32,000 bases of DNA from Ignicoccus pacificus DSM 13166 (GCA_025340205.1 CP006868.1:330001-362000); one strand, 5' to 3'; positions 7,826 to 29,827 are shown, counted from the first letter of the stretch. Made by a program: numbers and translations. Notes: generated from the sequence alone by a model not told the origin.

Positions 7826-7902
7826 TGGTGGGCCCGCGGGGATTCGAACCCCGGACCACCGGGTTATGAGCCCGGCGCTCTGCCTGGCTGAGCTACGGGC
7901 CC
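7826..7902 (-). tRNA. tRNA with CAU anticodon (elongator Met type, or Ile2 if C34 is modified), CCA encoded
   Basis: The reverse complement folds as GGGCCCG-TA-GCTC-AGCCAGGCA-GAGC-G-CCGGG-CTCATAA-CCCGG-TGGTC-CGGGG-TTCGAAT-CCCCG-CGGGCCC-A-CCA. All four stems are fully Watson-Crick paired. It is 74 nt plus CCA. The G1-C72 pair argues against an archaeal initiator. Confidence 0.95.
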
Positions 7903-9784: not shown

Positions 9785-11470
9785 TTGGAGGTAATTGGAC
9801 CTTACGACGTAGTAGTGGTGGGAGGAGGACTAGCGGGCCTGAGAGCTGCCATAGAGGTGAAGAGGCTGGGAGCCACTGTTCTAGTAATAGCTAAGTCCCA
9901 CCCCTTGAGGAGCCACTCCTCCGCCGCCGAAGGGGGTATTGCTGCTTACATAGAAGGGGCCTCCGATCCAAGGGACTCTCCCCTCCAGCACGCTTACGAT
10001 ACCGTGAAGGGTTCCGATTGGCTAGCTGATCAAGACGCAGTAGAGCTCATGACTAGGGATGCGGAGAGGGCGATAATAGAGCTTGAGAAGTGGGGATGCC
10101 TTTTCTCCAGGGATCAAGAGGGAAGGATAGCTAGGAGGCCCTTCGGAGGACACACCTATCCCAGAACTAGGTTCGCTGCGGATAAAACTGGAATGTGCTT
10201 GCTCCACACGGTCTTTGAAAGGGCCTTAGCAGAAGGGGTGGAGATGCTCTACGAGTTCTACGTAACCGACTTGGTTAGTGACAAGGAGAGGGTTTACGGA
10301 GTCTACGGCTTCGACCTTAGGAGCGGGGTCGATTACTTCATAAAGAGCAAAGCAGTGGTAATGGCTACGGGCGGAGGAGGCCTAATGTACAAGTTCTCCA
10401 CCAACAGCTATCTTAATTCCGGAGATGGGTACGCGATAGCCGCTAGAGCCGGAGCTAAGCTAGCCGACATGGAGTTCATCCAGTTTCACCCCACCGCTCT
10501 GTATCCAACTAACATCTTGATTACAGAGGCCGCCAGAGGAGAGGGAGGATACCTAATCAATAAGGAAGGAGAGAGGTTCATGAAAAGGTACGCTCCAGAG
10601 AGGATGGAGCTGGCTCCTAGGGACGTGGTCGCTAGGGCAATAGTGAACGAGATCAAGGAGGGAAGAGGCTTCGAGGGAGGTTACGTCCTCTTGGATCTAA
10701 CTCACTTGGGAGAGGCGAAGATCATGGAGAGACTGCCATTGGTAAGGGAAGTGGCCATGAAGTTCGCTAAGGTGGATCCGGTGAAGGAGCCCATACCCGT
10801 TAGGCCCGCTGCCCACTATACCATGGGAGGAATCAAGACAGACTTGGACGGAGCAACCAACGTGAAGGGGTTATTCGCAGCCGGAGAGGCCGCCTGCGTC
10901 AGCGTCCACGGAGCTAACAGGCTAGGAAGTAACTCCTTGTTGGAGACCTTGGTCTTCGGAAGGAGGGCCGGAATGGCTGCAGCAGCTTATGCTAAGGACA
11001 GGGGCTACATGGAGCCCCCGAAGGAAGCGGTGAAGGAAGCTGAGGCTAGGCTGTGGGCTCCCACTACCTTGGAGACCGGGTTGAAGTTCGGAGACTTGAG
11101 GAAGAAGGTAGGAGAGATAATGTGGGAGCACGTTGGAATAGAGAGGAATGAAGAGGGACTGAAGAAGGCAGTGGAGGAGCTAACCAATCTGTACAGGTTA
11201 ACCAAGAGCTTGAGCGCTAGTGGAGGTCCCGGGGCCTATGAACTAATGGCCGCCCACGAGACCATAAACATGATAATGAACGCCTTGGCAACCGCTCAAG
11301 CAGCCCTCTGGAGGACCGAGAGCAGGGGAGCCCATTATAGGATAGACTACCCGAAGAGAGACAACGAAAACTGGTTGGTCCACACCATAATGACTTGGAA
11401 GGGAGGATGGGAGCTGAGCAAGGAGCCGGTCACCATAACCAGGTGGCCTCCTGAAGAGAGGAAGTACTAA
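9785..11470 (+). CDS. sdhA: succinate dehydrogenase / fumarate reductase-type flavoprotein subunit
   Basis: The ORF is 561 aa. [15 protein letters not shown] is the FAD fold. [13 protein letters not shown] contains the covalent-FAD His position. Also present are [27 protein letters not shown], and the C-terminal [23 protein letters not shown]. No Fe-S or membrane subunit genes are adjacent. Confidence 0.8.
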
Positions 11471-12024
11471 TCCATCCTCCTACTTGTAAAGAATTTTCTA
11501 ACATAGATGCACTTGTTCTTAATGTTTAAAGTGTTACAGCATTCTAATATTCCTCTATCCTCTGTCACAGCAATATATGTACAACGTGTCGCTAATTCGA
11601 GGATCTTCTTATCTATTGTACTCAAGGGATTGCCTTTCTTAGGTTTACAATCGATATGAGGGACGTAATCCTCACCAAAGGGATCTAGCAGTATTCTTTC
11701 GTATCCTATAATCTTTTCAATGCTTAGTCTTACTAATGCCTTTATCTTTCTGAATATACATATGTTATTACGTACTATTATCATCCCTCTCTTTTTTGAT
11801 TCCATTTTAACTGAGTCATACAAGAATTCGACAACCCGTGAGGTTAACGGATCATACTCCTTTGGATTACGTTCTGTGATGAGATATTGGCATATGTACC
11901 CAGCCATCGACTTGGAGTATTCATCTATGATCGTGTTCAGTATGACCCAATCCTTGTGTTTGGGCTTATACCCTAGTAGGAGATAGGTTATACAGTTAGC
12001 ATCCAGAAGAATGGGTATGCTCAC
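11467..12024 (-). CDS. PIN-domain nuclease with large internal insertion (toxin-like)
   Basis: The ORF is 185 aa. The N-terminal [14 protein letters not shown] supplies the first PIN Asp. [27 protein letters not shown] gives the D...A and T.D motifs at the C-terminus. The region is AT-rich (18/60 G+C in a hand-counted sample at 11471-11530). An ATGA overlap links it to the upstream ORF. Confidence 0.65.
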
Positions 12025-12485
12025 TCATCGAGCACCCCATAGGCTATAGCGTAATCTTCAGCTTCCTCTAGGGATTCCTCTATTATTTCTCTTAGTAGTT
12101 CCTTTCCCTTTTTGTCCTCCAATTCTTCTAGGAGCTTTATTTTTGCTATTGCGTGATATAGGGGTGCGAGTATTAATGCTCTTTCGTCTTCGTTGAGGTT
12201 CTCCCATTTGGGAGAGCATTGAGCTCTAAGCACTTTTAGTATCTTGTTGGTAAGAGGGTCTGGGTCCGTCAGCTCTGACTCTTTGCACAATACTTCTCTC
12301 ATTTTCTTCCAGTATTCCTTTTCAAATTTGGATAGCGAAGTTATGTATTCTTTAGTAATGTTTATTGCCTCACTCAGCTTTACCTTCCCAATCAGTTTGC
12401 TTAGCACTTCCATCAGCTTCTCGGGATTTCCGGATCCAATTATATCGCTCCGTGCGACATCTGAGGGGCTAATCACTATAATCAC
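12021..12485 (-). CDS. hypothetical helical acidic protein, putative cognate partner of the PIN protein
   Basis: The 154-aa ORF is translationally coupled to the PIN gene by a 4-nt overlap and shares its AT-rich composition. The C-terminus is acidic ([19 protein letters not shown]). No DNA-binding motif is recognised. Confidence 0.5.
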   Translation of the reverse strand: MIIVISPSDVARSDIIGSGNPEKLMEVLSKLIGKVKLSEAINITKEYITSLSKFEKEYWKKMREVLCKESELTDPDPLTNKILKVLRAQCSPKWENLNEDERALILAPLYHAIAKIKLLEELEDKKGKELLREIIEESLEEAEDYAIAYGVLDE

Positions 12486-16913: not shown

Positions 16914-17480
16914 ATGGAGGGAACTAAGGAGTACACCCCAGAGACCATAAAGATATTGGAGTTGCTCGCCTACTTCTATCAGACCTACTTCCGTTCCATA
17001 ACCTTCTCCGCCCTTCCAGCAGAGCTGGAGGCGATACTGGGAGACGCCGCTTACGGCGTAATAGTTCGAATAGTTGCGGGGGCGTCTGGAAAGGCAGTCC
17101 CTACTATGGCAAAGAACATGGGCTATCAGTTGGAAGATGAGGACAAGCTAGCTGCTTTGGCCAACCTCAACAAGAAGTGCCACGTCGAACTGTACCAAGA
17201 GACCTCGAAGATAAAGGGTCTGGGAGACATAGGCTTAATCCCCGTTGAGTACAACAAGGAGAAAGGGAGAGTGCTCTTCCAGCTGGACAAGTGTCCTAAG
17301 AACATAATCGCAGCCGCTCCCTTCGTGGGAATAGTCGTTGGAATCTCAAGGGCTTTGGGGCTTAAGGTAACTGCAATAAGAACGCCGGAGCAGAAGCAGA
17401 TGATAAAGGAAGGATTCGTGGTGTATCCGATACTCAAGAAGGAAGAGGGCAAGTGCTACATAGCGGTCGAAAGGGTCTAA
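16914..17480 (+). CDS. hypothetical protein (188 aa)
   Basis: The ATG ORF has core-like composition, with a TTTAATT box about 35-40 nt upstream. No motif is confidently recognised. The stop overlaps the reverse gyrase stop by 4 nt (convergent genes). Confidence 0.6.
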   Translation: MEGTKEYTPETIKILELLAYFYQTYFRSITFSALPAELEAILGDAAYGVIVRIVAGASGKAVPTMAKNMGYQLEDEDKLAALANLNKKCHVELYQETSKIKGLGDIGLIPVEYNKEKGRVLFQLDKCPKNIIAAAPFVGIVVGISRALGLKVTAIRTPEQKQMIKEGFVVYPILKKEEGKCYIAVERV

Positions 17481-20400
17481 TCTAGGGGACTTCCCTCTAC
17501 AGGTATTTTCTTCGTCTCCTCAATTACTCCCCTAACCACTTCCCAATAGCTCCTCTTGCCTTCCGCTATCTCATCCATGGTCTTCTCGAGCTCCCTGGTC
17601 CTCTCCTCGCTGACGAGCTTGGGATACTTGGATGTTAGGTACTGGTAGACTGCTCTTCCCTTCTTAGTAGGTATCAGCTTTCTGACGTTCTTGCTTTCCA
17701 TGATATATCTCCTCTGAAGCAAGGTCTCTACTATCTTAGCGTAGGTGCTCGGCCTTCCCAATCCCCTTTCCTTCATCAGCTTGATCAAGTCAGCTTGAGT
17801 GTAGAGAGGAGTGGCGTGCCTAGTCGTTATTATAACCTTCTTCACCTTGTACGTCCCTTCTGGAATCGGTTGAACTATTCTGACTATTGGATACACCTTG
17901 AGAAAGCCTTCCTCAGTAACTTCAATCGGAACCTCCTTCTCTACCTTGACGTTCTCGAAGTCTCCGAGAGTTACCTCAAACTTCAAGTACTTTACCTTGG
18001 CTTCCCTCATCTGGCTTGCCATGAACCTCTGGAATATCAAGGAGTAGAGGGCAAAGTGCCTCCTGGTCAGCTGCTTTGGAGTTGTAATTAGTCCTTCCTC
18101 GATCATCTTCCTTAAATCGTCTGCCGTCAGAGGCCTAGTGGGCCTTATCGCCTCGTGAGCTCCCCCCTCTCCCCACCTCCTGGGGACGAACTCCTCCTCT
18201 CCGAAGTTGTTCGCTATCCATTCCTTAGCAATAGCTATTCCTACGTCCGAAACTCTGGTGGAGTCTGTTCTGTGGTAGGTGATGAATCCCATCTCGAAGA
18301 GGTCTTGGGCTATCCTCATCGTCTCCTCAGCTCCCATCCTGAGCCTCTCGTTGGCCTCCTCTAGCATCGAGTCGGTCGTGAAGGGAGGTCTGGGCTTTAG
18401 CTCCTCTTCCCTCTCCTCTAAGTACTTGACTACTACTTCAGTTAGCATCAAGTCCTTCCTGCTAGGCCTTCCCCCGAAGAGGTCCTCGGGGAAGCTCTCG
18501 CTCCAGTCCTCTCCGAAGTAGATTATGTAGAACCTCTTCTTCGATCTGAGGTACTCCTCGTACCTCTCTATCACCCACCCGAGGACCGGGGTCTGGACCC
18601 TTCCCGCCGAGAGGTTCCTGGAGATCAAGCAGTTGTTCCCTATGTGTTCCTTACAAAACTTAGGCCAGAAGTCGAGCCATAGCTTGGGGCTTAAGGTGAA
18701 CCCTATTAGCCTGTCTTCTACCCTCCTCATCATTTGAGCTTCCACTAGGTGCATGTCGAATTCTCTAGCTCCTTCTATGGCTTCCAATATAGCCCTCTTG
18801 GTAACCTCGTGGAACTCCACCCTCCTCATCTTCTTTGAGAAGGGTCTAAGCAAGTTCGCGACGTCCCACCCTATCTTCTCTCCTTCCGTATCAGGGTCGG
18901 TTCCTATAAGGACCTCATCCACTTCCTCCGCTATGAGCCTTAGTCCTTCGATCACGTCCCTCGAGTTCTTGAGGAACGGGGAGGAACACCTTATGCACCT
19001 CTCCGAGTCCTCGCTGAACTGAGTTCCGCAGACCATGCACCTCTTTATGGAAGTTAAGACCGTCTTCCCCGTTCCGTAGACTCCATAGTACAGGCACTCC
19101 TCCCCCTCTTGAGCTACGCAAAGGGGATCGCTCTCCCCTACCAGGTCGTAGGTGTGGCCTCCAGAAGCGGCTACGTAGAGCAGCTTGTCTCCAATGCTTA
19201 TTTCGTAAACCCTGGCCCCTCCTACGTTCCTCACCGAAGGCCTTCCGAAGAAATTGGTGATTGTCCTCGCCTTGTTGGGAGACTCAACTATTAGGAGTAC
19301 CGTCTTAAGGAGCTTCTTCACCTCTTCAGCCGTCAGTTCCCCCCTCATCACCTTCAAGACCTTCTTTCTGTCCTCATCTATCTCCTTGAGGAGCTTCTGA
19401 AGATCTAAGCTCTCGAACTCCACCCATTCATCAATGACCCATCTGAGCCTCTTCCTGAGGCCTCTGAACAAGGGCTCCGAGTCCACTATGATTACTGAAA
19501 GACCCTTGGTAACTCCTCCAGCGTAAAGCCTCGAGGTCCTTCCCGAGGCTTGAAGGTAGGTGGCCGAGTCGGGGACCAGGAGATAGGCCTCCCCTTCCTC
19601 TACCCTTACCTCCAGCTCTCCGCTCTCCTCTATCCTCCTCAAGAACTCCTCTGATCTAGCCAACTCCCTCACCTTTAGGAAGGCCTCGTAGAAGTCCTTC
19701 TCCGCCTGGGTTTCCACCTTCCCCTCCTTCAGTCTCTCCTCTAACGTCTTGATCGCTTGAGGGGAGAGCCTCTTCATCCATCCCCTTATCTTGGCATAAA
19801 GCCTCTCCAGCTCCTCGTCCTCCATGAGTTCGACGGCTATGCTGAGAATTCTGTATATGGTCATAGGGGACGGCTCCTCCAGCCTAAGCTTGAACTTTAG
19901 CCTCGGCACACCCTTGAAGACCGCATACCTTATCACGTGAGGTAAGTCTATTCCCCTAACGAGGACTCCATAGTGAGTAGCGACCCCAACTAGAACCTCT
20001 ACCTCTCCTCTCTCGAACTCTTCAATGGATTTCGTGTTCTCTGATGTCACCAAGGCTGCCTTTATTCCCTCCTCGTTGAGCGCCTCTACTACCTTCCTAG
20101 CTCCCTCCACCCCTTCATCTACGGGAACGTAGACCAGTCCGCCCTTTCCTAGGAGCCTCACCAGCTCGACCAACTCCTTCCTCTTGGTATAGGAGTCCAC
20201 GACGTTCCTTACTCCCTCTCCCCCTCCTCCCGGTTCGAAGCCGAGCAACGTCTTGAACAACCTTACCCTGTCAGTCCTTACCCTCCCGGTTGCGGAGCTT
20301 ACTATGAGAATTCCGCTGACCTTCTTCTTCATCTCCTCGACTTTTCTCCTAGCCTCCTCCAGCTCCTCCAGGAACTCCTTCCTCCTCTCGGGGTCGTTGG

Positions 20401-21148
20401 TCCTAGTCAAGTAAGCTATTAATCTTCTTTCTTTATTTGTTATTTCGAAAAGCTCTTGAATATCGTCTTCCTCCAATCCTAAGAGGAGGAGGAGCCTGTC
20501 CACGTTCTTGGGACTCTTAAGGACCGAATCAACGTCGTCTACGAAGATTATCGAGTACTTGAACCTCCTCAGTTGTTCCAACCTATTAATGAGGAAGCGG
20601 GAAGTCGTGATCAGGATATCGAACTCTCCTTCCTCGAACTTCTTTTCCATTTCCTTCTTGACTGAGGGGCTCAGCTTTGAGTGAACGTAAACTAACCTCA
20701 AGTTGAAGAGGTCGGCGAAGGGTTGCACCTTCTTGGCCATCATTTCTACCAAGGGTGTAGTGGGGACCACTATGTACGCCTTCCCCCTTCCCTTGCCCGC
20801 TAAGTAGGACGTTATGGCGGCTCCGAAGGTACTCTTCCCCATTCCCGTAGGCGCTATTATGGAAAAGCTTTCCCCTCTAAGGGCTCTGATTGCCCATGCC
20901 CTCTGGGCGCTCCAGAAGACGCTTCTGGTGACCTCCTTGAAGGCGCTTTCAAGCTTCCTAACCTCCTCCATGAGCTTCTTGTACTTGATGTAAGGGGAGT
21001 TCGGGTACTTGCGCTCGAGCTCCTTTAGGGCTATTTCAAGCATCTCCTCTTTTGGTAAACACATCTTACAAGGGAGTCCCTTGGAGAGCCTCTCGTCGCT
21101 GATCGGTCCTCCGCAGACGGGGCAAGCGCCCCGGTACTCTGCGTACAA
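17477..21148 (-). CDS. rgy: reverse gyrase
   Basis: The ORF is 1223 aa. It has an N-terminal Zn finger (CPVCGG...CKMC). The SF2 helicase module carries APTGMGKST and FVDDVD. The C-terminal topoisomerase IA module carries TOPRIM IGTDPDTEGEKI and the catalytic-Tyr motif ITYHRTDS. It has a TTG start, with TTTAAATAA on the minus strand at 21188-21196. Confidence 0.97.
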   Translation of the reverse strand: MYAEYRGACPVCGGPISDERLSKGLPCKMCLPKEEMLEIALKELERKYPNSPYIKYKKLMEEVRKLESAFKEVTRSVFWSAQRAWAIRALRGESFSIIAPTGMGKSTFGAAITSYLAGKGRGKAYIVVPTTPLVEMMAKKVQPFADLFNLRLVYVHSKLSPSVKKEMEKKFEEGEFDILITTSRFLINRLEQLRRFKYSIIFVDDVDSVLKSPKNVDRLLLLLGLEEDDIQELFEITNKERRLIAYLTRTNDPERRKEFLEELEEARRKVEEMKKKVSGILIVSSATGRVRTDRVRLFKTLLGFEPGGGGEGVRNVVDSYTKRKELVELVRLLGKGGLVYVPVDEGVEGARKVVEALNEEGIKAALVTSENTKSIEEFERGEVEVLVGVATHYGVLVRGIDLPHVIRYAVFKGVPRLKFKLRLEEPSPMTIYRILSIAVELMEDEELERLYAKIRGWMKRLSPQAIKTLEERLKEGKVETQAEKDFYEAFLKVRELARSEEFLRRIEESGELEVRVEEGEAYLLVPDSATYLQASGRTSRLYAGGVTKGLSVIIVDSEPLFRGLRKRLRWVIDEWVEFESLDLQKLLKEIDEDRKKVLKVMRGELTAEEVKKLLKTVLLIVESPNKARTITNFFGRPSVRNVGGARVYEISIGDKLLYVAASGGHTYDLVGESDPLCVAQEGEECLYYGVYGTGKTVLTSIKRCMVCGTQFSEDSERCIRCSSPFLKNSRDVIEGLRLIAEEVDEVLIGTDPDTEGEKIGWDVANLLRPFSKKMRRVEFHEVTKRAILEAIEGAREFDMHLVEAQMMRRVEDRLIGFTLSPKLWLDFWPKFCKEHIGNNCLISRNLSAGRVQTPVLGWVIERYEEYLRSKKRFYIIYFGEDWSESFPEDLFGGRPSRKDLMLTEVVVKYLEEREEELKPRPPFTTDSMLEEANERLRMGAEETMRIAQDLFEMGFITYHRTDSTRVSDVGIAIAKEWIANNFGEEEFVPRRWGEGGAHEAIRPTRPLTADDLRKMIEEGLITTPKQLTRRHFALYSLIFQRFMASQMREAKVKYLKFEVTLGDFENVKVEKEVPIEVTEEGFLKVYPIVRIVQPIPEGTYKVKKVIITTRHATPLYTQADLIKLMKERGLGRPSTYAKIVETLLQRRYIMESKNVRKLIPTKKGRAVYQYLTSKYPKLVSEERTRELEKTMDEIAEGKRSYWEVVRGVIEETKKIPVEGSPLD

Positions 21149-21252
21149 TTACTATTCTCCCTATGTGTTCACTAGCCCTCCTTCCGGTTATTTAAAGGAG
21201 TTGGTCGTAGTAGCTCAAAGGATTGCTCTTTCCGGTTTTACCGTTTCATCTC

Positions 21253-21262
21253 TATATATTAA
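21253..21262 (+). promoter_or_regulatory. TATA-like box for the six-gene cluster
   Basis: TATATATTAA lies about 45 nt upstream of TTG 21303. A GGGAGAGG Shine-Dalgarno-like run sits 5 nt before the start. It lies in the divergent intergenic region shared with rgy. Confidence 0.45.
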
Positions 21263-21302
21263 TCTTCGTATCAATAGAAACCAATGAGAAAGGGAGAGGA
21301 CG

Positions 21303-22250
21303 TTGACAGCGTACGCTGTGGCGATGGTACAGAGAAGCGAAGCAAGTAGGAAGAAGAGGACAAGGTACTGTGAGTTTTCAGAGGATGAATGGAAAAAAGC
21401 TAGCGAAGAGGCACTCAGGTTACTAAGAAATGACATAGTAAGCAGCAACGCCGTACTTGAACCCTATCGGTGGACGGATAGGTACGATCAGATAATCAAA
21501 ACCCTCAACGACGGAATAGTTAGAATAAGAAACGACATAGGAACGATCGCTCGAATACGCCTTAATACACAAGCTGAAGCGAAACCAATAGTTGAGATAA
21601 ACCCTGTTGAACTTGATTTCGTCTTGAATAGCGTTCTAGGCAGCATGGTAGAAAAGTACAGAGGAAAGTTCGTGCCGAATTACTATGACTGCGCTTTAGC
21701 AGCTGTTGCCATAGCTATCTTCGTTCTAGCCCACGAGCTTTACCACATGGTATTCAAAGCAGAGGATTGGGTTTCAAAGTTCAAGAAAACGGTCATAGAA
21801 AGGTTAAGACAGGAGCTAGGTGAGGAAGCCAATATAAACGATCAATGTATTGAAAGGTTCTCTAAGGTGATGATAAACTACCTACAAGATCCTTATGCGA
21901 ACTCAGCCGCGTTCCTCAAACTGTTTGAGATAATCAACAAAGAAATAGGCCTTCACGGACCCTATGGAGTACTCGTAGGTACAATTCATGAAGTAATGGC
22001 AGATAATGGCTACTTAACAATGGATAAACTTGACGACTTCTTAGATGTAGCGTTAAAGGGAATTCTAAGTGACTATGAACGAAAGGAGCTCAAAGCAATC
22101 ATGTCAAATCCCTTTGTCAGCAACATGGAACAAATAGTTAGCATAACGGCGAATGCAGTGGCGAGGAACAAGAGATTTCAGAGATGTGTTGACAAGAAGA
22201 ACCTTAACGATTGTTGGAGTTGCATTGAGGCATTGCTTCAGCTAGGATGA
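21303..22250 (+). CDS. cluster gene A: HExxH (zincin-like) putative metallopeptidase
   Basis: The ORF is 315 aa, with TTG 21303 as start and ATG 21324 as an alternative. HELYH lies at 21732-21746 (residues 144-148). It is preceded by the hydrophobic helix AAVAIAIFVLA, as in zincins. No canonical third-ligand motif, TM segment or signal peptide is seen. Confidence 0.55.
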   Translation: MTAYAVAMVQRSEASRKKRTRYCEFSEDEWKKASEEALRLLRNDIVSSNAVLEPYRWTDRYDQIIKTLNDGIVRIRNDIGTIARIRLNTQAEAKPIVEINPVELDFVLNSVLGSMVEKYRGKFVPNYYDCALAAVAIAIFVLAHELYHMVFKAEDWVSKFKKTVIERLRQELGEEANINDQCIERFSKVMINYLQDPYANSAAFLKLFEIINKEIGLHGPYGVLVGTIHEVMADNGYLTMDKLDDFLDVALKGILSDYERKELKAIMSNPFVSNMEQIVSITANAVARNKRFQRCVDKKNLNDCWSCIEALLQLG

Positions 22251-22271
22251 AGGCGACGAAGGGGTGCTCCT

Positions 22272-23219
22272 ATGAGAGGCATTCCCCTTTTCGGGGGGAG
22301 GAAAAAGAGAGACAAAGACGACGAAGGAAGCCCTTCTAAAGAGCTTCCCGTGAAGGATTTCAACCTGAGAAGTCTAGCAGCGCAAGGGAATTTAAGTAAG
22401 GTAGATTCCCCTCCCTTAAGCGTTGAGACTTTCGAATTGCTCACCCAAAGGATAAACCTCGAAACCTATAAGGAAAAGGCCTTCAAGCTTCTAAGCGACT
22501 TGAAAGAGTTAAATTATAAAGAGGTAGCTTCCTTCGTAGACTTGAACACAGAAGAGATCGTAAGGGATATCGTATTCAATAGCATACCTCGGAGACAGAT
22601 AGCTATTAGTTTAGAAGAAGGATATGACACCTATGCGTTTCCTTGGAGATATATTCATGCACCGAGGATCTCTCTATATGTATTTATCGAAGACAGACTC
22701 CTCGGTGGTACGAACGTCTCAAAAATCAAGGAAATCATCGATATAATTAGAAGTGCATATGAGAATTTCTCTATAAACGTCCTTTCGTTAAATTACGAAA
22801 AAGTAGAGCTCCTTTTTAAGGAGATCGATATCAATGATTTTCATCAAATTAGAAGGGAGGTTAAATTCGAAGATCTTATAGAGATAGTGTTGAATGATAT
22901 GAATGACCCTCTTACCGGAGGCATAATACTCTTAAGTATCCTTACAGAAAAGTATTATAATAAATATTTGGATTGGTTCATCAAATCGGACACTAAGAGA
23001 AATGAACTGGTGGAAACTCTATTATGGAGGTTTGAAAGAGAAAAAGTCGTCAGGAAAGTCTTCCTCATAGTTGAGGGTACTATTCAGCTTGGAGGGCAAT
23101 GCGTATCTCAAGCTTCTGACAGTAAGCCTTTGATGCCTCTCGAGGGGACCTTAGGTTGGCTGTTGGAATCTGGACCTCCCGAGAGATTCTATCTAGAGTG
23201 TACACAAAAATACCCTTAA
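22272..23219 (+). CDS. cluster gene B: hypothetical protein with basic, probably disordered N-terminus (PLFGGRKK motif)
   Basis: The 315-aa ORF starts 21 nt after gene A, with AAGGGGTG upstream. The N-terminus is MRGIPLFGGRKKRDKDDEGSPSKE. No catalytic motif is recognised. Confidence 0.6.
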   Translation: MRGIPLFGGRKKRDKDDEGSPSKELPVKDFNLRSLAAQGNLSKVDSPPLSVETFELLTQRINLETYKEKAFKLLSDLKELNYKEVASFVDLNTEEIVRDIVFNSIPRRQIAISLEEGYDTYAFPWRYIHAPRISLYVFIEDRLLGGTNVSKIKEIIDIIRSAYENFSINVLSLNYEKVELLFKEIDINDFHQIRREVKFEDLIEIVLNDMNDPLTGGIILLSILTEKYYNKYLDWFIKSDTKRNELVETLLWRFEREKVVRKVFLIVEGTIQLGGQCVSQASDSKPLMPLEGTLGWLLESGPPERFYLECTQKYP

Positions 23220-23240
23220 CTCCATGTAAACTAACGATAA

Positions 23241-23885
23241 GTGATGAACGACTTGGTGAACTTGTCAGACATTGTGATAGAAGCACTAGGGGGAGTAATT
23301 GTAGTAAAGGATGCAGAGATCTCTTGTTCTACCTTTGAAGCATATGCTGATAGTGAAAGAATCTTTGAAGTTGACAGAAAGGTAACCGAGTTCGCTAAAG
23401 TTACTAAAAATGAGAATGATAAGATAATGACCTTTGGAACGCTCACTGGAATAAACCAAGAGCACTTTAAAGAGATAGTGGAACGCCAGCCCCCTAATTT
23501 CGTGCTCTACGACATCGTGGCAGTGGATGACGAAGGGAACCCTCTGAACTCAAGGGTACAGATCCTTCTGCAAAGTTCGGTTCCTACAGCGTTCAGACAA
23601 GTAACTATAAAGGCAAAGGTAAGAAATAGATACATAAAAGAAGTAGATTATGGCGATGAGAAAAAGAGAATCGTAAAGAACTTGTACTTAGCTACGTGTA
23701 TGTTAATCAAGGGAAGCTACGATAAAGAGACATACGAGTCCTTCCTAAATCTTATCCTTAACAAGTTGAGTGCTTCTACGTATAGAAGCAAGGAAAGGAT
23801 ACTCTTCGTCACTAACTTCCTTGAAAAAGAAATATATCATATGGTCTGGTACTCGTACTTGAGGACAGAGGTAGTAGAATCATGA
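23241..23885 (+). CDS. cluster gene C: hypothetical protein
   Basis: The ORF is 214 aa, starting at GTG 23241 or ATG 23244, 21 nt after gene B. Its stop overlaps the gene D start (ATGA). No motif is recognised. Confidence 0.6.
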   Translation: MMNDLVNLSDIVIEALGGVIVVKDAEISCSTFEAYADSERIFEVDRKVTEFAKVTKNENDKIMTFGTLTGINQEHFKEIVERQPPNFVLYDIVAVDDEGNPLNSRVQILLQSSVPTAFRQVTIKAKVRNRYIKEVDYGDEKKRIVKNLYLATCMLIKGSYDKETYESFLNLILNKLSASTYRSKERILFVTNFLEKEIYHMVWYSYLRTEVVES

Positions 23886-24820
23886 TAATCAACACAGAGG
23901 AGGAACCGCTATCAGCTGCTGTAAAGGATGGCCATCTTCTCTACATCGATAGTAAAGGCTTGTTGAAGATCGTGGAACTCAAAGTGGGCGCTACTAGGGA
24001 TGCGTTCAAAGTGGTGCCGGAGGAAACAGAGATAGACCTCGGAAAGGAAATCATTGCTCTTGGTGCGGATAAAGACGGAGTAGTAATGCTTACTAAAGAC
24101 TCATCAATGTGGTATGGTAGTATAGAAGACTTGAAGAAAGGGAATGTTGCCTTTAAGTCGGTGAAGGGAAACGAGAACATAGAGTTTCCCTTCTCGCCTT
24201 ACACTGAACCTATGGCTAGCGTCATCATTCCGTTTGAATACGGGGGAAAGAAGTTGTTCTTTCTGAAAGGTGTGTGGAGGAAGTACTTTGAGATAATAGA
24301 CGAAAGCGGTAAGAGACTCTGGAAGGCTTGCTGCGGCAACGTACTAGGCCCCTCCTACTGGCCGAAGCCTGGACTCATCTATACATACTTGGATACGGCT
24401 TTTATAGCAAGGATGAAAGAGATAGTCGAGGAGAGGTTCTGTAACGATAATACACCCATATCATGTAGCGAGAGGCTAAACGTTAAGGACTTCGACTTCC
24501 TTTGGGCCTCACCGAGCGTAGTAGCCAAGATGAGCGCTTCTGGGAGCGAAGTAGAAGTAACCTTGTTGAACAAAGAGGAAAAGATATCCTTTGATTTAAG
24601 CCCCCTCGGAGATGCAAGGGGCATGACCTACCACGGCTTCGCTTGTTCCGAGAACGTAACCCTTCTGCTCACCGATACCGGCATGATCCTAATCAGTCGT
24701 TCTAGTCCACAAACCTTCAGCTTCGATAGAGCTGAAGGGATGAAAGTAGCGGTACCTTCGGACAACTCATTCATAGTGTTCTTGAGGAAAAGATCGCTTT
24801 TGGGAATATACTCTTCATGA
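23882..24820 (+). CDS. cluster gene D: soluble beta-propeller-like repeat protein
   Basis: The ORF is 312 aa. It has repeated strand-turn patterns (GHLLYIDSKGLLKIVEL, DGVVMLTKDSSMWYG, FEIIDESGKRLWKACCG, VTLLLTDTGMILISR, SDNSFIVFLRK) typical of PQQ/WD-like blades. It shares the hexapeptide DNSFIV (24761-24778) with gene F. Confidence 0.5.
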   Translation: MIINTEEEPLSAAVKDGHLLYIDSKGLLKIVELKVGATRDAFKVVPEETEIDLGKEIIALGADKDGVVMLTKDSSMWYGSIEDLKKGNVAFKSVKGNENIEFPFSPYTEPMASVIIPFEYGGKKLFFLKGVWRKYFEIIDESGKRLWKACCGNVLGPSYWPKPGLIYTYLDTAFIARMKEIVEERFCNDNTPISCSERLNVKDFDFLWASPSVVAKMSASGSEVEVTLLNKEEKISFDLSPLGDARGMTYHGFACSENVTLLLTDTGMILISRSSPQTFSFDRAEGMKVAVPSDNSFIVFLRKRSLLGIYSS

Positions 24821-24864
24821 AAGTTCTATATCCGAGCAGAGTACGTTATTTCAGGTAAGAGGCT

Positions 24865-26814
24865 TTGGGCGTTAGCGCGCTGACACCCAAGGATATAATA
24901 TTCTATGTAATGGAATATGTCTTCAAGTACCCGCTATCTCAGAGCGCTGTTCCCTTATTTATAGGTCCTCCTGGAATCGGAAAGAGTGCCTCTGTATACG
25001 AAGGATTTGAAAAACTAACCGATATGCTTGCCTTGTATTACTGGAAGAATCTAGGTAAGGAAAAAGCGGTTGAGGATTGGGAAAAATTAGTTGAAAATGC
25101 ATCGCAAAGGTGCAAAGAGGATGAGATTTGTAACACTTTCTATAAGATGTTACTGAAAAGCGCTGAGAGATCGGACGTGCTCAAGAAATTATTGGATGAT
25201 TACGCCTCCACCGTTCCGGACGCTGCGAGGAAGGCCATGGAGGCTCATAGGAAACTGGGGAAGGAGGGTCTGCCCAGAAGCTTAGTCATTACCTATGATG
25301 CCACACTCCAAGATGTAGAAAAATTCTTTAAGGACGCATTCGTATTTGTAAAGATAGACGTTAGCATCCACGATCCCACGGACCTCCTCGGAATACCTTA
25401 CGTTGATCGGAAAAGGGAAGTGACAACCCATCTTCCCTTACACTGGGCCTTAGCTTTAAGGGAATCGAAGTTAGGCTTGTTGTTATTAGACGAGTTCACC
25501 AACAAGATGCACGTTCTCTTAGAAAGCGCACTCTACGAAATAACGCTGGACAAGAAGGTCGGTAACATATACTTCAACAAGCCAGTGGTGGCGACTGGTA
25601 ACGACATGGACAGCTCGATACTGGTAAGGAAGTTACCGGGCCCACTGGTTACGGGCAGAATCAACGTAATACCGACGGATGCCCCTCTCATTGAAGACTG
25701 GATCAAATACATGATTGATAGGCACAGGACGGAGTGGTTCGTACCACCAGTTTTCCTCTTACTCATCATGTCTCGCTATAGCAGAGCGCTAAAGGTTGGT
25801 GCGGAGAGGGGAGGTCTGCCACATTCTAAAATACGAGATTTGTACAGAGCGGTCTTCTCTGAGGACCCCTTCCTTCCCAGTTCCGAGAAGCTCAAGGAGT
25901 ACTCAGCCATAGAGCTCCGTATCAGCGGTTCGGAGGAGGGGGTGAGAGAGGACTTTGTAGGTAGTTTCCCAAGCCCTAGAGTATGGGAGAAGCTCCTTGT
26001 GGATCTCTATTATTCCTTAAATTTCCTCGACTCTAAAGAATCTACGAAGGATCAAATAGAGAATATGTTGCTGACTAAGATCAAGTCGTACTTGGGTTTT
26101 AAAGACCTAAGTGAGATGGTATATGCTATGGCCATTGAATTTAGAGAAAAGGGATTAACAGAGGGTTTACTTAAGTTCATTGCTGAAGAGGCTCCTCAAG
26201 ACAGAAAGAAAAAACTAGTGCCTCTTAGCGAGGACAAACTCTCACAACTCTCGCTTAACGATGCTAAAAAGATGAGGAAAGATATAGTTGACAGCATGAA
26301 GAATTTCGTCTATTCTAGTTTAGAGCTTGAGAAGATGAATAAGATCATAGAAACTATAATCAGTACATCCGCTCCAGAGGAAGAAAAGAAGGAAGCCATT
26401 AAGGAATTTAAGAAAACCTTGAGCAAAGCTTCACTCACGTTTGCGTTGACGACAAAAGCAGTTGAGCTTCTACGTAAACGTAGCGAAGACAAATCCGTTG
26501 AAGGAACTACAGATATCGTCTTCAGATATCTAACCTTAGCGTTCCTGGAGGGATTGCTCGAAGGATTTGAAGAACTCTCAGATCAATTTGAAGAGAAAGA
26601 TATTAGAAGACTAATATGGGGCTACGTGATCTTACATGCAACGGCTACAGTACTTAGAGAGTTCACGATAAGGGCCGGTTTCTCTCCAGCTAGAAAGTAT
26701 GGCTCAAACATGGAAGGGGAGAGAAAAGAGGAAACAATGGCGTGGGTCTCATCTGTATTAAACGATATACAAAAAGAGCTAGAGGAAATAGAGGAAGAAC
26801 TACAGACTCCATGA
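24865..26814 (+). CDS. cluster gene E: MoxR/AAA_5-type AAA+ ATPase with large insertion and long helical C-terminal region
   Basis: The ORF is 649 aa with a TTG start (ATG alternative near 24910). Walker A is GPPGIGKS (residues 34-41, 24964-24987). Walker B is LLLLDEF (D209 at 25489). The sensor-1-like VVATGND and the pre-Walker-B segment FVKIDVSIHDPTDLLGIPY fit the MoxR/dynein-related clade. The Walker A to Walker B spacing is 169 residues. The C-terminal roughly 350 residues are E/K-rich and helical. Confidence 0.7.
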   Translation: MGVSALTPKDIIFYVMEYVFKYPLSQSAVPLFIGPPGIGKSASVYEGFEKLTDMLALYYWKNLGKEKAVEDWEKLVENASQRCKEDEICNTFYKMLLKSAERSDVLKKLLDDYASTVPDAARKAMEAHRKLGKEGLPRSLVITYDATLQDVEKFFKDAFVFVKIDVSIHDPTDLLGIPYVDRKREVTTHLPLHWALALRESKLGLLLLDEFTNKMHVLLESALYEITLDKKVGNIYFNKPVVATGNDMDSSILVRKLPGPLVTGRINVIPTDAPLIEDWIKYMIDRHRTEWFVPPVFLLLIMSRYSRALKVGAERGGLPHSKIRDLYRAVFSEDPFLPSSEKLKEYSAIELRISGSEEGVREDFVGSFPSPRVWEKLLVDLYYSLNFLDSKESTKDQIENMLLTKIKSYLGFKDLSEMVYAMAIEFREKGLTEGLLKFIAEEAPQDRKKKLVPLSEDKLSQLSLNDAKKMRKDIVDSMKNFVYSSLELEKMNKIIETIISTSAPEEEKKEAIKEFKKTLSKASLTFALTTKAVELLRKRSEDKSVEGTTDIVFRYLTLAFLEGLLEGFEELSDQFEEKDIRRLIWGYVILHATATVLREFTIRAGFSPARKYGSNMEGERKEETMAWVSSVLNDIQKELEEIEEELQTP

Positions 26815-26851
26815 CGTGTGAAAATGATCTACAACAAGTAGAGGTAGGAAT

Positions 26852-28555
26852 ATGCTAAAGGAGATAGCTATATTGTCATTATTCTATGTCCCTCTTCTCT
26901 TCATTTCACCCAACTTGTTCTTGAATTTTCCACTTTGGGGTTTGCTATTTCTTGCACTTACAATAACTTATGTCCTAGCTAGGAAAAAGGACGCACTGCT
27001 GTTTCTTCCCGAGATACTGAAAAAGAAGGAAGTAAAGGAGAACGTATTCTACGCTATATTGATAGAAGCAATTTATAGAGGCTATCTTTGGTTAATTCTG
27101 ATTAACTATGGTTACATCGTCGCGGTTGTTGGTGAGCTAGTGATTCCGATACTTGTAAGAGCAATTGTTTCCTATTCCTTTGGAATACTCCCAAACTCTC
27201 TCTATTCAGTCAAAAAAGAAAGAACAGGAGAAATCGATAGTATGTTTGTCAAGGTTGGCTTCCGCTTGGTGAGACCTTTAGAGAGATTGACTATAATGCC
27301 CTCAACCTCCTTTAGGAAAATAGATTTGATCGGCTATGTTTCTAATACAGTTTTCCCTACCCTACTTATCTCCCTCTCTGACTCGTTGAGCTTGACGTTA
27401 ATAGCAAAAATGTCGTTATTCATACTAATTCTTTTAAATTATCATTATAAGGAAAACTGTGAAAGGAAGGGAAATGCTGTAATATGCAAAATACCTTCCG
27501 GTACGGTAAGGGTATCTTCAAGAATCAAGATTACTGGTTGTCATGGTGATCCCGGGCAATTTATTGAGGTCAGAAATTGTAATGCTCAATTAGAAGTGAT
27601 TACAAGTGAGCTAGGAATCGAAACTTCTTCAGAGAAAGTTGAAGTTGAGATGAAAGGTCTTGGTGGTTATACTAAGAAAGAGTTAGAAGTTAATGAAGAG
27701 GACTTACTGATTTATCCTATTTGGGTAAAAAAGAGAATAGGACATTTTCACATCCGCTCTCAAGGAACTTTCGCAATAACCTCTTCACCCTACTTGTATA
27801 TACTTACCCCTAGAGGGGAAGTAGAGTTTGGATTAATGAATAGTAGAATTGGTGATGGTATTTTACATAACAATTTTCTCTTTTATACGATATGGCCTGA
27901 TTCCATAATAGTTAGAAATATGGAGAGCCATATTGAGAGAAAAATATCCAATAGGAGATCGTCTACGTTCCTAATTAGACTGATCGGCGACTATCTAATC
28001 GTCTGCTGGAGGGGCTGTACTGCCTTTAAGGTGTATTTAGACAAGTTCGATAAGTTCGACAAATCAATTGTCGAGGAACTATGGCATTTGTCATTCTATG
28101 GTCTCGTAGATAAAAGGATAGAGTATAGAGAGGGTCTCCTTTACATGCCTGTGGTACTCGGAGATTTACTTATAACAGATGTTGAGAGTGGTAGAGTACT
28201 CAATAGGTTGAAGTTCGGCAAGTATAATACTCCCATGAGCGTTGCACTAAGAGAAAACGAACTCTATTTGCTTCTGACTCGTGAACTAAGGGTTTACGAT
28301 ATTAGCTCTCCAGAAGAACCTAAGCTACTATGGAAGAAAAAGTTACCTACAGAAGCCATCGACGTAGCTGTTTCAAACAGAGGTGAGATAGCAATAACCT
28401 TTAGCGGCGACAACTCGTTTATAGTATTAGATCCCGAAGGCAACACCATTTTCAGAAAGAGAGTGAGTTATACAATGCAAGGTGTTGCTTGGCTAGATGA
28501 CATATTGCTCGTCGGGGTACTTCCAGATCAACTCCACGCCTACAAAAGGCTCTAA
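26852..28555 (+). CDS. cluster gene F: multi-pass membrane protein with C-terminal beta-propeller-like domain
   Basis: The ORF is 567 aa, with GAGGTAGG 5 nt upstream of the ATG. About 5 hydrophobic helices lie in residues 1-200. The C-terminus has repeats of the form LY....(D/G)..L...D...G..(L/I)(W/F) (GLLYMPVVLGDLLITDVESGRVLNRL, ELYLLLTRELRVYDISSPEEPKLLWKKKL, GEIAITFSGDNSFIVLDPEGNTIFRKRV, DDILLVGVLPDQLHAY). IEAIYRG (27065-27082) resembles a degenerate CPBP motif 1. Confidence 0.6.
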   Translation: MLKEIAILSLFYVPLLFISPNLFLNFPLWGLLFLALTITYVLARKKDALLFLPEILKKKEVKENVFYAILIEAIYRGYLWLILINYGYIVAVVGELVIPILVRAIVSYSFGILPNSLYSVKKERTGEIDSMFVKVGFRLVRPLERLTIMPSTSFRKIDLIGYVSNTVFPTLLISLSDSLSLTLIAKMSLFILILLNYHYKENCERKGNAVICKIPSGTVRVSSRIKITGCHGDPGQFIEVRNCNAQLEVITSELGIETSSEKVEVEMKGLGGYTKKELEVNEEDLLIYPIWVKKRIGHFHIRSQGTFAITSSPYLYILTPRGEVEFGLMNSRIGDGILHNNFLFYTIWPDSIIVRNMESHIERKISNRRSSTFLIRLIGDYLIVCWRGCTAFKVYLDKFDKFDKSIVEELWHLSFYGLVDKRIEYREGLLYMPVVLGDLLITDVESGRVLNRLKFGKYNTPMSVALRENELYLLLTRELRVYDISSPEEPKLLWKKKLPTEAIDVAVSNRGEIAITFSGDNSFIVLDPEGNTIFRKRVSYTMQGVAWLDDILLVGVLPDQLHAYKRL

Positions 28556-28591
28556 ACGATTTCCCCAAACCAGTTCAGCGGTCAGTTCGAG

Positions 28592-29827
28592 ATGCCTTCC
28601 TTGAGGGAACTCGCTGAGACCTTGGGAGCTGAGCATCTAGGAACTATCAAGAAAGATCAAGTGACGGAGATTATAAAGAAGTACGAGAAGCTGGGTAAGC
28701 CAATAATCTACAAAGTTGAAGGATCAGACGTAGAAGTACTCTCGGCCCTCTACTCAAGCAGGGAGGCCGTCTGGAAGGCCTTGGACTCGAGAAGCGATGA
28801 GGAGGCTTACAGGAAGCTCTTAGAGCTGAAAAAAGGAGAACTGAAAGAAATTCCCTTCAAATTCAGGGAATTAGATAGCCTAGATTCCATACCTTGGGTC
28901 AAGTTCTATCCTAAGGACGGAGGAGAGTACCAAACCGCTTCCATCTTCATTGCCTGCAGAAAGGGGATATGCAACTCCTCCTTCCACAGGGTAATGAAGC
29001 TCGACGCAAAGAGATGTGCGGTAAGACTCGTCCCAAGGCACCTCTACACTATGCATAAGGAGGCCGTAGAGGAGGAAGAGGAGCTCCCGGTAGCCGTGGT
29101 AATAGGCGCTCCCAGCGAGGTGGAGTTCGCCTCTGCATTAAGCGTTCCTTTCGGAACGTTCGAGCTGGAGATAGCTGCCGGGATAGCGGGAAGCTTGGAG
29201 ATAGCCAAGACTCCCCTCTACTCCCTCCCCGTCCCAGCTAGGTCGGCGGTAGTGATGGAGGGAAGGCTGACCAAGGAGAGGGTCAAGGAAGGACCCTTCG
29301 TGGATCTCCTCCATACCTACGATAAGGTTAGGGATGAGCCTGTCTTGGTAATTGATAAAGTTTACTGGAATCCATCCGAGCTCTTCCACTTGATCCTTCC
29401 TGGAGGGAGGGAACACCAGTACCTAATGGGATATCCCAGGGAGGCGAGCATTTGGGACTCTGTGAGGAAGGTGGTTCCTAAGGTCCACAAGGTTAGGTTG
29501 ACTCCAGGCGGAGGGATGTGGCTTCACGCTGTGGTAAGCGTCACCAAGGCAAGCGACGGGGATGCCAAGAACGCTATCATGGCTGCCTTTACTGGTCATC
29601 CATCCCTCAAGCACGTGGTAATAGTGGACGAGGACGTGGATCCGGACGACCCGGAGCAAGTGGAGTGGGCGATAGCGACCAGGTTCCAAGCGTGGAGGGA
29701 CTTGGTAGTGGTCAACTACGCCAGAGGATCTTCCTTGGATCCCAGCGCTGAGGGGTATACCTCAAAGGTAGGAATAGATGCCACTGCTCCTATTAAAGAG
29801 AAGGAGAAGTTCGAGAGAGTGGAATGA
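28592..29827 (+). CDS. UbiD-family (prenylated-FMN-dependent) decarboxylase, short archaeal form
   Basis: The 411-aa ORF has overall UbiD-like landmarks (GGEYQTASIFIA, NSSFHRVM, RLVPRHLY, VVIGAPSEVEFAS, GPFVDLL, VVIVDEDVDPDDPEQVEWAIATRF). Its composition returns to core-like G+C (33/60 in a sample at 29101-29160). Confidence 0.8.
   Translation: MPSLRELAETLGAEHLGTIKKDQVTEIIKKYEKLGKPIIYKVEGSDVEVLSALYSSREAVWKALDSRSDEEAYRKLLELKKGELKEIPFKFRELDSLDSIPWVKFYPKDGGEYQTASIFIACRKGICNSSFHRVMKLDAKRCAVRLVPRHLYTMHKEAVEEEEELPVAVVIGAPSEVEFASALSVPFGTFELEIAAGIAGSLEIAKTPLYSLPVPARSAVVMEGRLTKERVKEGPFVDLLHTYDKVRDEPVLVIDKVYWNPSELFHLILPGGREHQYLMGYPREASIWDSVRKVVPKVHKVRLTPGGGMWLHAVVSVTKASDGDAKNAIMAAFTGHPSLKHVVIVDEDVDPDDPEQVEWAIATRFQAWRDLVVVNYARGSSLDPSAEGYTSKVGIDATAPIKEKEKFERVE

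Follow-up and report, generated by a model that had tools for sequence, protein, structure and literature searches.

What might six adjacent genes, every one of them annotated as encoding a hypothetical protein, be doing together in the chromosome of a hyperthermophilic archaeon? We addressed this question for a block of genes between reverse gyrase (rgy) and a UbiD-like gene in Ignicoccus pacificus DSM 13166, within a stretch of 32,000 nucleotides (nt; CP006868.1:330001-362000) that we refer to as the window. The first-pass annotation of this DNA, made from the sequence alone, had read the block as an operon centred on a MoxR/AAA_5 ATPase that lacks the usual von Willebrand factor A (vWA) partner, and had found that it matched no known system. 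Our analysis connects the block to known families after all, by way of the family of its ATPase and a partner protein of the DUF2201 type. We consider it probable that the operon is a derived, vWA-less and expanded archaeal branch of the AAA_5/DUF2201 (zincin plus vWA) gene pairs, within the wider MoxR-vWA world. The six open reading frames (ORFs), here A to F, correspond to IPA_02015 to IPA_02040, with protein E 100% identical to IPA_02035. They lie exactly where they had first been placed, all on the plus strand and separated by 21, 21, -4, 44 and 37 nt, so that the operon-like character of the block, with its tight same-strand packing, is borne out:

Positions 21303 to 22250, plus strand: A (IPA_02015), 315 amino acids (aa), zincin-like HExxH protein, TTG start.
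Positions 22272 to 23219, plus strand: B (IPA_02020), 315 aa, acidic soluble protein.
Positions 23241 to 23885, plus strand: C (IPA_02025), 214 aa with the start used here.
Positions 23882 to 24820, plus strand: D (IPA_02030), 312 aa, soluble protein.
Positions 24865 to 26814, plus strand: E (IPA_02035), 649 aa, divergent AAA+ ATPase of the dynein-related/MoxR-like kind.
Positions 26852 to 28555, plus strand: F (IPA_02040), 567 aa from the first ATG, membrane protein.

Five of the proteins (A, B, D, E and F) are each singletons at 90% clustering among some 15 billion proteins, and the identity of E had to be approached through distant relatives. A word-indexed search with E returned E itself and P0002, a hydrothermal-vent metagenome protein at 33% identity. 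An exhaustive HMMER search of 1.84 billion representatives with a two-sequence profile yielded 475 relatives at E-values ≤1e-3. Eighteen of these, 540-700 aa long, constitute a close family (E-value <1e-30), while the other relatives, among the best 150 of the 475, are mostly ATPases of ~340-400 aa. Where members of this wider family were scanned, they come up to the gathering score of AAA_5 or near it, and they also touch AAA, AAA_3 and bpMoxR. At profile E-values of ~1e-20, relatives score 27-30 bits against AAA_5 (PF07728), for which the cut-off is 22, and three of the ATPases from phage loci pass it. In UniRef, E is labelled 'ATPase dynein-related AAA domain-containing', and a word search that took the profile of the family as its query was flooded with generic proteins of the AAA_5 type. 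Across Pfam, NCBIfam, PADLOC and PHROGs scans of all six proteins, the sole significant match was that of E to the PHROGs family phrog_1297, 'ATPase' (8.9e-18).

The catalytic elements of an AAA+ ATPase are all in place in E. Walker A (GPPGIGKS, residues 34-41), the D209-E210 pair of Walker B (LLLLDEF), sensor-1 N246 and arginine R265 are nearly or fully invariant among 68 family members. Motifs invariant or near-invariant in the family are Walker A, P-x-D-L-x-G-x-P, W-A, Walker B (LDEFTN), sensor-1 (GN), L-P-x-P-L-x-x-R, W-x-x-x-M and FP[ST]PRxW, the last of these appearing in E as an invariant FPSPRxW at residues 368-374. An AlphaFold2 (AF2) model of E built from a two-sequence alignment reached a mean predicted local distance difference test score (pLDDT) of 39, and we used instead a model from the 68-sequence alignment (pLDDT 84.5, predicted template modelling score 0.87), in which a five-stranded AAA+ core and the lid (residues ~294-347) are predicted at pLDDT >90. 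A four-helix insertion follows the Walker A helix (residues ~64-135), a hairpin in the helix-2-insert position (residues 177-190, strands 177-181/186-190) lies ahead of the helix at 193-200 in the model, and a helical C-terminal domain occupies residues 371-649.

In Foldseek comparisons of this model with the PDB, the highest probabilities went to NorQ (1.00), NorQD (0.99), CbbQ2 (0.98) and the MoxR-type structure 2r44 (0.97), with LONP1, MCM and dynein scoring alongside them. No solved structure matched at E-values ≤1e-3. Against the predicted viral structures of BFVD, the model gave 26 matches at E-values ≤1e-3, the named ones being mostly ATPase/AAA proteins, several of them 'dynein-related AAA' and from phages. 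From its profile relatives, predicted fold and BFVD/PDB matches, we place E in the AAA_5/MoxR-like group; as judged from its relatives and model, it is a divergent long-form archaeal branch of the dynein-related/MoxR-like AAA_5 ATPases. The label originally given to E is thus right in kind, and it is reached transitively, E having no direct Pfam match of its own.

Two further observations concern this ATPase family. The only two cysteines of E lie inside the helical insertion, in the sequence CKEDEIC (residues 83-89, window 25111-25131), and this C83-x5-C89 arrangement is kept in one subclade of the family (P0005, P0011, P0013, P0014, P0017, P0018) and absent from the other; it may bind a metal or form a disulfide. 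In addition, the I. pacificus genome encodes outside the window a second, anciently diverged ATPase of the E family, IPA_06615 (P0014, 539 aa, 27% identical to E), which in a neighbour-joining (NJ) tree groups with members whose neighbouring partner protein carries a vWA domain.

We then compared gene neighbourhoods. Close-family contigs were fetched together with four genome loci and eight IMG/VR loci, and the comparison covered 15 close-family loci (the window included) and eight phage loci from IMG/VR, which is a small sample. A partner of the DUF2201 type adjoins the E-family ATPase at 11 of the 15 close-family loci and at all eight phage loci. Its layout is an N-terminal zincin-like HExxH domain (DUF2201_N, PF13203, a putative metallopeptidase domain) followed by a C-terminal vWA domain (DUF2201, PF09967), and the vWA half is present at eight of the 11 close-family loci that have the partner. 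Bona fide Pfam matches to DUF2201_N and DUF2201/VWA identify it in a Desulfurococcales metagenome-assembled genome (MAG; L009), a Sulfolobales MAG (L011), L025, L026 and every phage locus. At L005, L010, L014 and L016, the neighbour of the ATPase is a protein of 520-605 aa with the same layout on weaker evidence: those of L005, L010 and L014 have weak vWA or DUF2201 matches, and that of L016 is assigned by the profile of the A family alone, its Pfam scan being empty and its MIDAS motif (metal-ion-dependent adhesion site) degenerate. The MIDAS motif is kept in L014 (DVSPS), L005 (DFSAS) and L010 (DVSGS), and a MIDAS-bearing vWA domain is encountered in L005, L009, L010, L011, L014, L025, L026 and the phage loci. 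A profile of bona fide DUF2201 vWA domains matches the partners from L005, L016 and L014 in their C-terminal halves, at an hhalign probability of 96.2% (E-value 2.6e-9).

In the Ignicoccus operon, the counterpart of this partner would be protein A. The HExxH motif first noticed in A is confirmed as HELYH at residues 144-148 (nt 21732-21746), and a second conserved motif follows it, N192..D196..A199-N200, with the general form N..(H/Q)D.(Y/F)AN. Both motifs align across A, its counterparts in L007 and L002, and the intermediate partners. By BLASTP, A matches the L007 protein (L007:2847-3908) at 7.6e-11 and the L002 protein (L002:5812-7104) at 8e-4, and a profile of these three (A, L007_353, L002_430) aligned with one of the L005, L016 and L014 partners over 146 columns (hhalign 97.5%, E-value 6.4e-12). 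Scanned directly against Pfam, A gave no match above threshold, DUF2201_N included, and its downstream motif is similar, though not identical, to the A-x-D-x-x-x-N of DUF2201_N. Since a direct profile match to DUF2201_N covers 14 columns only, the link of A to that domain rests on intermediate sequences and on gene position. On these sequence comparisons, A is a homolog of the N-terminal domain of the partner without its vWA half, and the A/E pair shows evolutionary coupling. A 647-aa ENA metagenome protein, P0166, is a natural fusion of AAA_5 with DUF2201_N, which provides Rosetta-stone support for functional coupling of the ATPase and zincin-like families.

That no vWA or MIDAS feature exists in the block, as had been asserted at first reading, holds for all six proteins: the pattern D-x-[ST]-x-[ST] is absent from each, and no vWA match was found in Pfam at E-values ≤1. 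Because the E family is regularly paired with a zincin-plus-vWA partner, and A corresponds to that partner minus vWA, we read the vWA-less state as derived, apparently by secondary loss, or possibly by gene fission, inside a recognisable module. Were the gene split, B could be imagined to fill the position of the partner's vWA half, an idea that we offer as speculation. The idea that B is what is left of a diverged vWA domain drew no signal from hhalign comparison with the vWA profile of the relatives, from a PDB search or from Pfam; the hhalign probabilities of B, C and D against the vWA profile built from the relatives' partners were all ≤0.2%.

The vWA-less arrangement is not confined to I. 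pacificus. It recurs in two further hyperthermophilic archaea, on a JGI contig from a hydrothermal metagenome, which has ribosomal protein genes as well (L007), and in the MAG GCA_054016855.1 (L002). In L007, the gene order is a 545-aa F-like protein, a vWA-less A-like protein of 353 aa, proteins of 300, 156 and 288 aa, and a 658-aa homolog of E. In L002, it is a 221-aa multi-pass membrane protein, a vWA-less A-like protein of 430 aa, proteins of 51 and 322 aa, a 551-aa D-like protein and a 667-aa homolog of E. In the NJ tree, E and the two homologs (P0005 of L002, P0013 of L007) form one clade. Given this grouping and the synteny of L002 and L007, it appears that a vWA-less partner, a membrane protein and proteins of the D and F types travel with one clade of the ATPase, in operons that also hold two or three small proteins that evolve fast. 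Whether the genes would co-localise in other genomes was the check first proposed for this locus, and they do: homologs of A, D, E and F cluster in L002 and L007. The existence of homologs also excludes the reading of the ORFs as chance.

The remaining proteins of the operon are conserved to different degrees. The region homologous to D in L002 is residues ~259-464 of the 551-aa protein (L002:8303-9958; BLASTP 4.9e-25, hhalign 98.8%), which is encoded directly upstream of the E homolog. The membrane anchor proposed for F is confirmed as about five N-terminal hydrophobic or transmembrane (TM) segments (residues 1-197, nt 26852-27442). F and the 545-aa protein of L007 (L007:1174-2811) align collinearly, with 24% identity, over both the TM region and the C-terminal domain of ~370 aa; the C-terminal domains match at an hhalign value of 79%, and a word-indexed homolog search with F found F itself and nothing else. 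For B and C, database searches detected no relative, the positionally equivalent genes of L007 and L002 included. Sequence searches of the PDB gave nothing significant, whether the query was E, A, B or C, the profile of the A family, or the pair of D or F sequences.

Beta-propeller folds had been suggested for D and F, and we could not support these labels: neither protein has a Pfam, NCBIfam or PDB sequence match, and internal repeats in the two did not rise above shuffled controls (z -0.8 to 1.3). The F-like protein of L007 touches Beta-prop_ACSF4 at an E-value of 0.003, far below the cut-off for that model. Apart from this, D and its L002 homolog share the strictly conserved sequences W-x-A-x-C-G-x-x-x-G-P-x-x-W and F-C-x-D-x-x-P-I-S-C-S-E (residues ~147-199 of D, window 24320-24480), whose cysteines may belong to a metal or disulfide centre. 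F and its L007 counterpart share Y-x-I-L-x-E-A-x-x-R-G-x-L-W in TM3 (residues ~67-83 of F, window 27050-27100). The sequence is reminiscent of motif 1 (EExxxR) of intramembrane proteases of the CPBP/Rce1 type; we considered this reading and set it aside, as the first Glu of EExxxR and the His motifs are missing and there is no Pfam match. The NCBI start of F lies 23 codons downstream (544 aa as against 567 aa), and it is in the extra residues of the longer form that most of the first hydrophobic segment lies; for C, too, the NCBI protein differs from the GVG-start translation used here.

Several results weigh against assigning the operon to the AAA_5/DUF2201 pairs. The weakest step is the direct comparison of A with bona fide DUF2201_N profiles, which aligned 14 columns around HExxH at 25% probability. 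A Pfam scan of E found no AAA model (AAA_5 and AAA_3 included) even at E-values ≤1, and its close-family homologs have no Pfam match either. The Foldseek E-values of E against solved MoxR structures are weak (0.03-0.12), with target-normalised TM-scores of 0.25-0.45. At four close-family loci belonging to one subclade (L001, L003, L012 and L013), no partner is present, so the pairing of ATPase and partner is not obligatory. B and C lack homologs in the L002 and L007 operons, and any functional equivalence of the middle genes across genomes is therefore conjectural. Many of the E-values for homology between neighbouring genes were, moreover, computed on small local databases. Finally, a literature search found no experiment on any DUF2201-type pair, which leaves any mechanism to be drawn wholly by analogy, and no paper treating either these pairs or the operon, the papers that name DUF2201 doing so in passing.

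How, then, does the operon compare with systems that have been described? To our knowledge, the AAA_5/DUF2201 gene pairs are functionally uncharacterised. They are common in tailed phages, bacteria and some archaea, and their ATPase family includes E as a distant member. The operon resembles them in the HExxH N-terminal domain of A and its position next to the ATPase gene, with the L005, L014 and L016 partners as bridges. It differs in that the length of E is almost double, with a helical insertion of ~70 residues and a helical C-terminal domain of ~280 residues, in that E and A fall below Pfam thresholds, in that A has no vWA domain, and in the addition of B, C, D and F. With NorQ-NorD, CbbQ-CbbO, RavA-ViaA and CoxD-CoxE, the operon shares an AAA+ core with an apparent helix-2 insert and an adjacent partner gene, and the partners of its relatives bear MIDAS. 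Unlike in the NorQ-NorD type, no dedicated client enzyme is apparent here, and the structural similarity of E is weak. We know of no zincin-like domain in NorD, CbbO or ViaA, unlike in the DUF2201-type partner.

These comparisons allow a mechanism to be sketched. In the case of NorQD, a finger of the vWA domain reaches into the pore of hexameric NorQ, the client is held at the MIDAS face, and a linker in NorD is twisted and stretched by ATP hydrolysis (PMC13036017; PMC9976466); Kaur et al. generalise MoxR and vWA proteins as a chaperone/co-chaperone couple (PMC7159879). Such finger/MIDAS coupling cannot operate as described in the Ignicoccus operon, because the operon has no vWA domain. What we observe of the module itself is that the catalytic AAA+ residues of E and the HExxH of A are intact and that F is membrane-embedded by prediction. 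By analogy with NorQ-NorD, CbbQ-CbbO and RavA-ViaA, E would form a hexameric ring in which ATP hydrolysis pulls or twists an adaptor and so remodels a client protein. As there is no vWA domain in this form of the operon, the adaptor role would have passed to one or more of B, C, D and the soluble domain of F. A would act either as a zinc peptidase on the remodelled client or as a non-catalytic substrate clamp, and F would hold the assembly at the cytoplasmic membrane. Taken as a whole, this specific mechanism is a tentative proposal that we consider less likely than not. It is possible, though on balance doubtful, that the operon encodes a distinct and so far undescribed membrane-associated AAA+/zinc-peptidase machine of hyperthermophilic Thermoproteota, in which new subunits have replaced the vWA adaptor, the link between motor and client in all characterised members of the MoxR class.

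The position of the operon bears on where it came from. Its surroundings in the window are archaeal housekeeping genes, including reverse gyrase, SRP54, a TyrRS/TrpRS-type synthetase, succinate dehydrogenase flavoprotein, a MinD-like ATPase, an amino-acid kinase, a UbiD-like protein and tRNA-Met. Its immediate borders are as follows, GC denoting G+C content and GC3 its value at third codon positions:

Positions 17477 to 21148, minus strand: reverse gyrase (rgy), 1223 aa, native composition, GC3 0.68; outside the system.
Positions 21149 to 21302, no strand: rgy/A intergenic region, 154 nt, between divergent genes; left compositional boundary of the island.
Positions 28592 to 29827, plus strand: UbiD-family decarboxylase-like gene, right flank, native composition, GC3 0.63.

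The AT-richness noted at first reading is real, and quantitative profiles show the deviation from the flanks to be sharp in every measure. Sliding-window GC is 0.37-0.47 over 21-28.5 kb, as against 0.51-0.54 in the flanks. GC3 lies at 0.39-0.55 in A to F, compared with the values above for rgy and the UbiD-like gene and with 0.60-0.70 for other window genes that have a Pfam assignment. The codon adaptation index (CAI), with the housekeeping genes of the window as reference, is 0.49-0.58 in A to F as against 0.66-0.80 for the comparison genes. The break coincides with the ends of the operon, at the rgy/A spacer on the left and between the stop of F and the start of the UbiD-like gene on the right. 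Homologous clusters at four of four other chromosomal loci examined lie 5-9 GC3 points below their flanks, whereas in the window the difference is ~20 points. Composition and the lack of close homologs together suggest that the block was acquired horizontally.

An acquired block invites the reading, raised at the outset, of a decaying remnant of an integrated virus or plasmid, in which E would be a virion-morphogenesis chaperone like p618 of Acidianus two-tailed virus (ATV) and the other proteins structural or membrane components. The foreign composition is compatible with this, the closest of the significant structural matches of E are phage ATPases, E matches the PHROGs family phrog_1297 (8.9e-18), and ATV p618/p892, cited in PMC7159879, supply a precedent. 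The presumed likeness to ATV p618 (MoxR-type) and p892 (vWA) would extend to the archaeal hyperthermophilic host, an ATPase of ~600 aa, and a vWA partner, which here is found in the pair-type relatives. The locus itself, however, lacks viral hallmarks. There is no integrase-like ORF within 21-28.6 kb, a search for flanking att-like direct repeats found only 15-25-mers at chance level, and no tRNA gene lies at the borders of the island, the sole tRNA of the window being at 7826-7902. A to D and F have no PHROG match; B, D and F have no tblastn match among 50,697 phage and virus records (INPHARED), where E matched bacterial phages only, weakly, and no archaeal virus; and IMG/VR holds no relative of the A, D or F families. 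All six ORFs are intact and tightly spaced, and in L007 and L002 this type of operon lies between housekeeping genes, including ribosomal protein genes. With no feature in its favour at the locus beyond composition, an ATV-like remnant seems most improbable.

The same mobile appearance could point to an NTP-dependent, MoxR-centred conflict or defence system, a resemblance that the first-pass annotation had also drawn. In such a system, E would be a thresholding chaperone, A a processing peptidase, D and F sensors, and B and C variable sensors or effectors, all carried on a mobile island. The AT-rich island with its sharp boundary, the lower GC of the clusters relative to their flanks in four other genomes, the patchy distribution, the singleton proteins, the extremely fast divergence of the middle genes, and the presence of E relatives in phages and on contigs resembling mobile elements would all fit. 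Distant relatives of E weakly match bpMoxR of the MoxR-vWA-beta-propeller systems, and there is a conceptual precedent in the ternary MoxR-vWA conflict systems of the VMAP, iSTAND, FtsH and beta-propeller types (PMC7159879), which likewise combine a MoxR-like ATPase with conserved and variable components, a peptidase and a mobile-looking neighbourhood.

The defining components of those systems are nevertheless undetected here. The MoxR-vWA couple, the specific third component and the effector or effector-associated domains of the ternary systems of Kaur et al. (2020) find no counterpart in the operon, which has no recognisable effector, nuclease, caspase or STAND module. Systems of the beta-propeller type have propeller and vWA component fused in one protein (PMC7159879), and the Ignicoccus operon has neither a vWA domain nor a demonstrated propeller. 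A scan with PADLOC (PADLOC-DB v2) gave no significant match, the best being A to PDC-M69B (E-value 0.0048, around HExxH) and B to REase_II (0.011), with none for C to F, and no defence genes occur near the operon within the window. The ternary systems described are, furthermore, bacterial and enriched in multicellular bacteria (PMC7159879), whereas this operon is archaeal. The defence resemblance is thus speculative, and we regard such a function as unlikely.

Signals around the genes are consistent with joint expression. A promoter box and Shine-Dalgarno-like runs before each gene had been proposed, and most of this stands: a TATATA lies at 21253 on the plus strand, ~50 nt 5' of the TTG start of A, the run GGGAGAGG immediately precedes that start, and GA/GG-rich runs are found before A, B, D, E and F, though none before C. 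A TTTAAA at 21191-21196 is in a position better suited to rgy. The stop of C and the start of D overlap by 4 nt. None of the spacers from A through to the UbiD-like gene contains a T-run of ≥5, and a single A-F transcript is accordingly plausible. The UbiD-like gene starts 36 nt past the stop of F on the same strand, again with no T-run between them, so that transcriptional read-through from F into it is possible.

This proximity is also what would commend a further reading, namely that the operon is a maturation chaperone for one enzyme, in the manner of NorQD, CbbQO, CoxDE or MoxR, with the downstream UbiD-like decarboxylase as a possible client. Most characterised MoxR-class ATPases do activate, or load a cofactor into, one dedicated enzyme (PMC9976466; PMC13036017), and the UbiD-like gene follows F closely without a T-run terminator. 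Set against this, it is precisely at the junction of F with the UbiD-like gene that the composition changes (GC3 0.39 vs 0.63). The downstream neighbours of the operons in L002 and L007 are an M20 peptidase and a shikimate dehydrogenase, UbiD being adjacent in neither; the pair-type loci have unrelated neighbours; and no enzyme partner is conserved across the compared loci. We therefore consider dedicated maturation of the UbiD-like enzyme, or of any single enzyme, very unlikely.

The derivation of the operon from AAA_5/DUF2201 pairs, if correct, would be of interest for several reasons. MoxR-class motors are thought to act by way of a vWA adaptor, and here is a lineage in which the motor is retained, as is the zincin half of the partner, and the vWA domain is dropped. 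The gain of a membrane protein and new subunits would then amount to a natural experiment in re-coupling such motors. If a distinct machine is indeed encoded, its role might be that of a regulated ATP-dependent protease or of a mobile conflict module, and it might have spread horizontally among Desulfurococcales. The operon also offers a first handle on the larger family of AAA_5/DUF2201 pairs in phages, bacteria and archaea, and places in context six 'hypothetical' genes from a genus, Ignicoccus, whose cell architecture is unusual. Its practical value is limited for now, not least because there is no genetic system for Ignicoccus.

Some contigs recovered in the comparison are unusual in their own right. 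L003, L012 and L013 have almost no Pfam matches and may be mobile elements or stem from poorly known lineages. L012, L013 and L014, metagenome contigs of 47-87 kb that carry members of the other E subclade and are almost devoid of Pfam matches, encode ORFs of 2098 and 1010 aa, a PrimPol-like protein, a KaiC-like ATPase, a TFIIB-like zinc ribbon, an XPB-like helicase and a topoisomerase. These three may represent large mobile elements, viruses or poorly sampled hydrothermal-vent archaea. In the Desulfurococcales MAG contig JALWJF010000012.1 (L003/L008), positions 776-1099 encode a TnpB/Cas12f-like fragment (Cas12f1-like_TNB) 1.6 kb upstream of the E-family gene; the surrounding stretch holds small ORFs without Pfam matches, which suggests a variable or mobile region.

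Elsewhere in the window, composition also departs from that of neighbouring genes. A second, smaller AT-rich islet at 11467-12485 consists of two minus-strand ORFs with overlapping stops, 11467-12024 and 12021-12485, which encode proteins of 185 and 154 aa without a Pfam match (GC3 0.42 and 0.45, CAI 0.49-0.56). It sits between a succinate-dehydrogenase-flavoprotein-like gene and a methyltransferase, and sliding-window GC falls to 0.396 there. On the plus strand, a 317-aa ORF containing DUF1648 (4183-5136) has a GC3 of 0.50 and a CAI of 0.57, below its neighbours. The PaREP1/PaREP8 family is typical of crenarchaeal genomes, and the window carries one such gene on the minus strand at 8973-9503 (E-value 8e-20), beside tRNA-Met and a THUMP methyltransferase.

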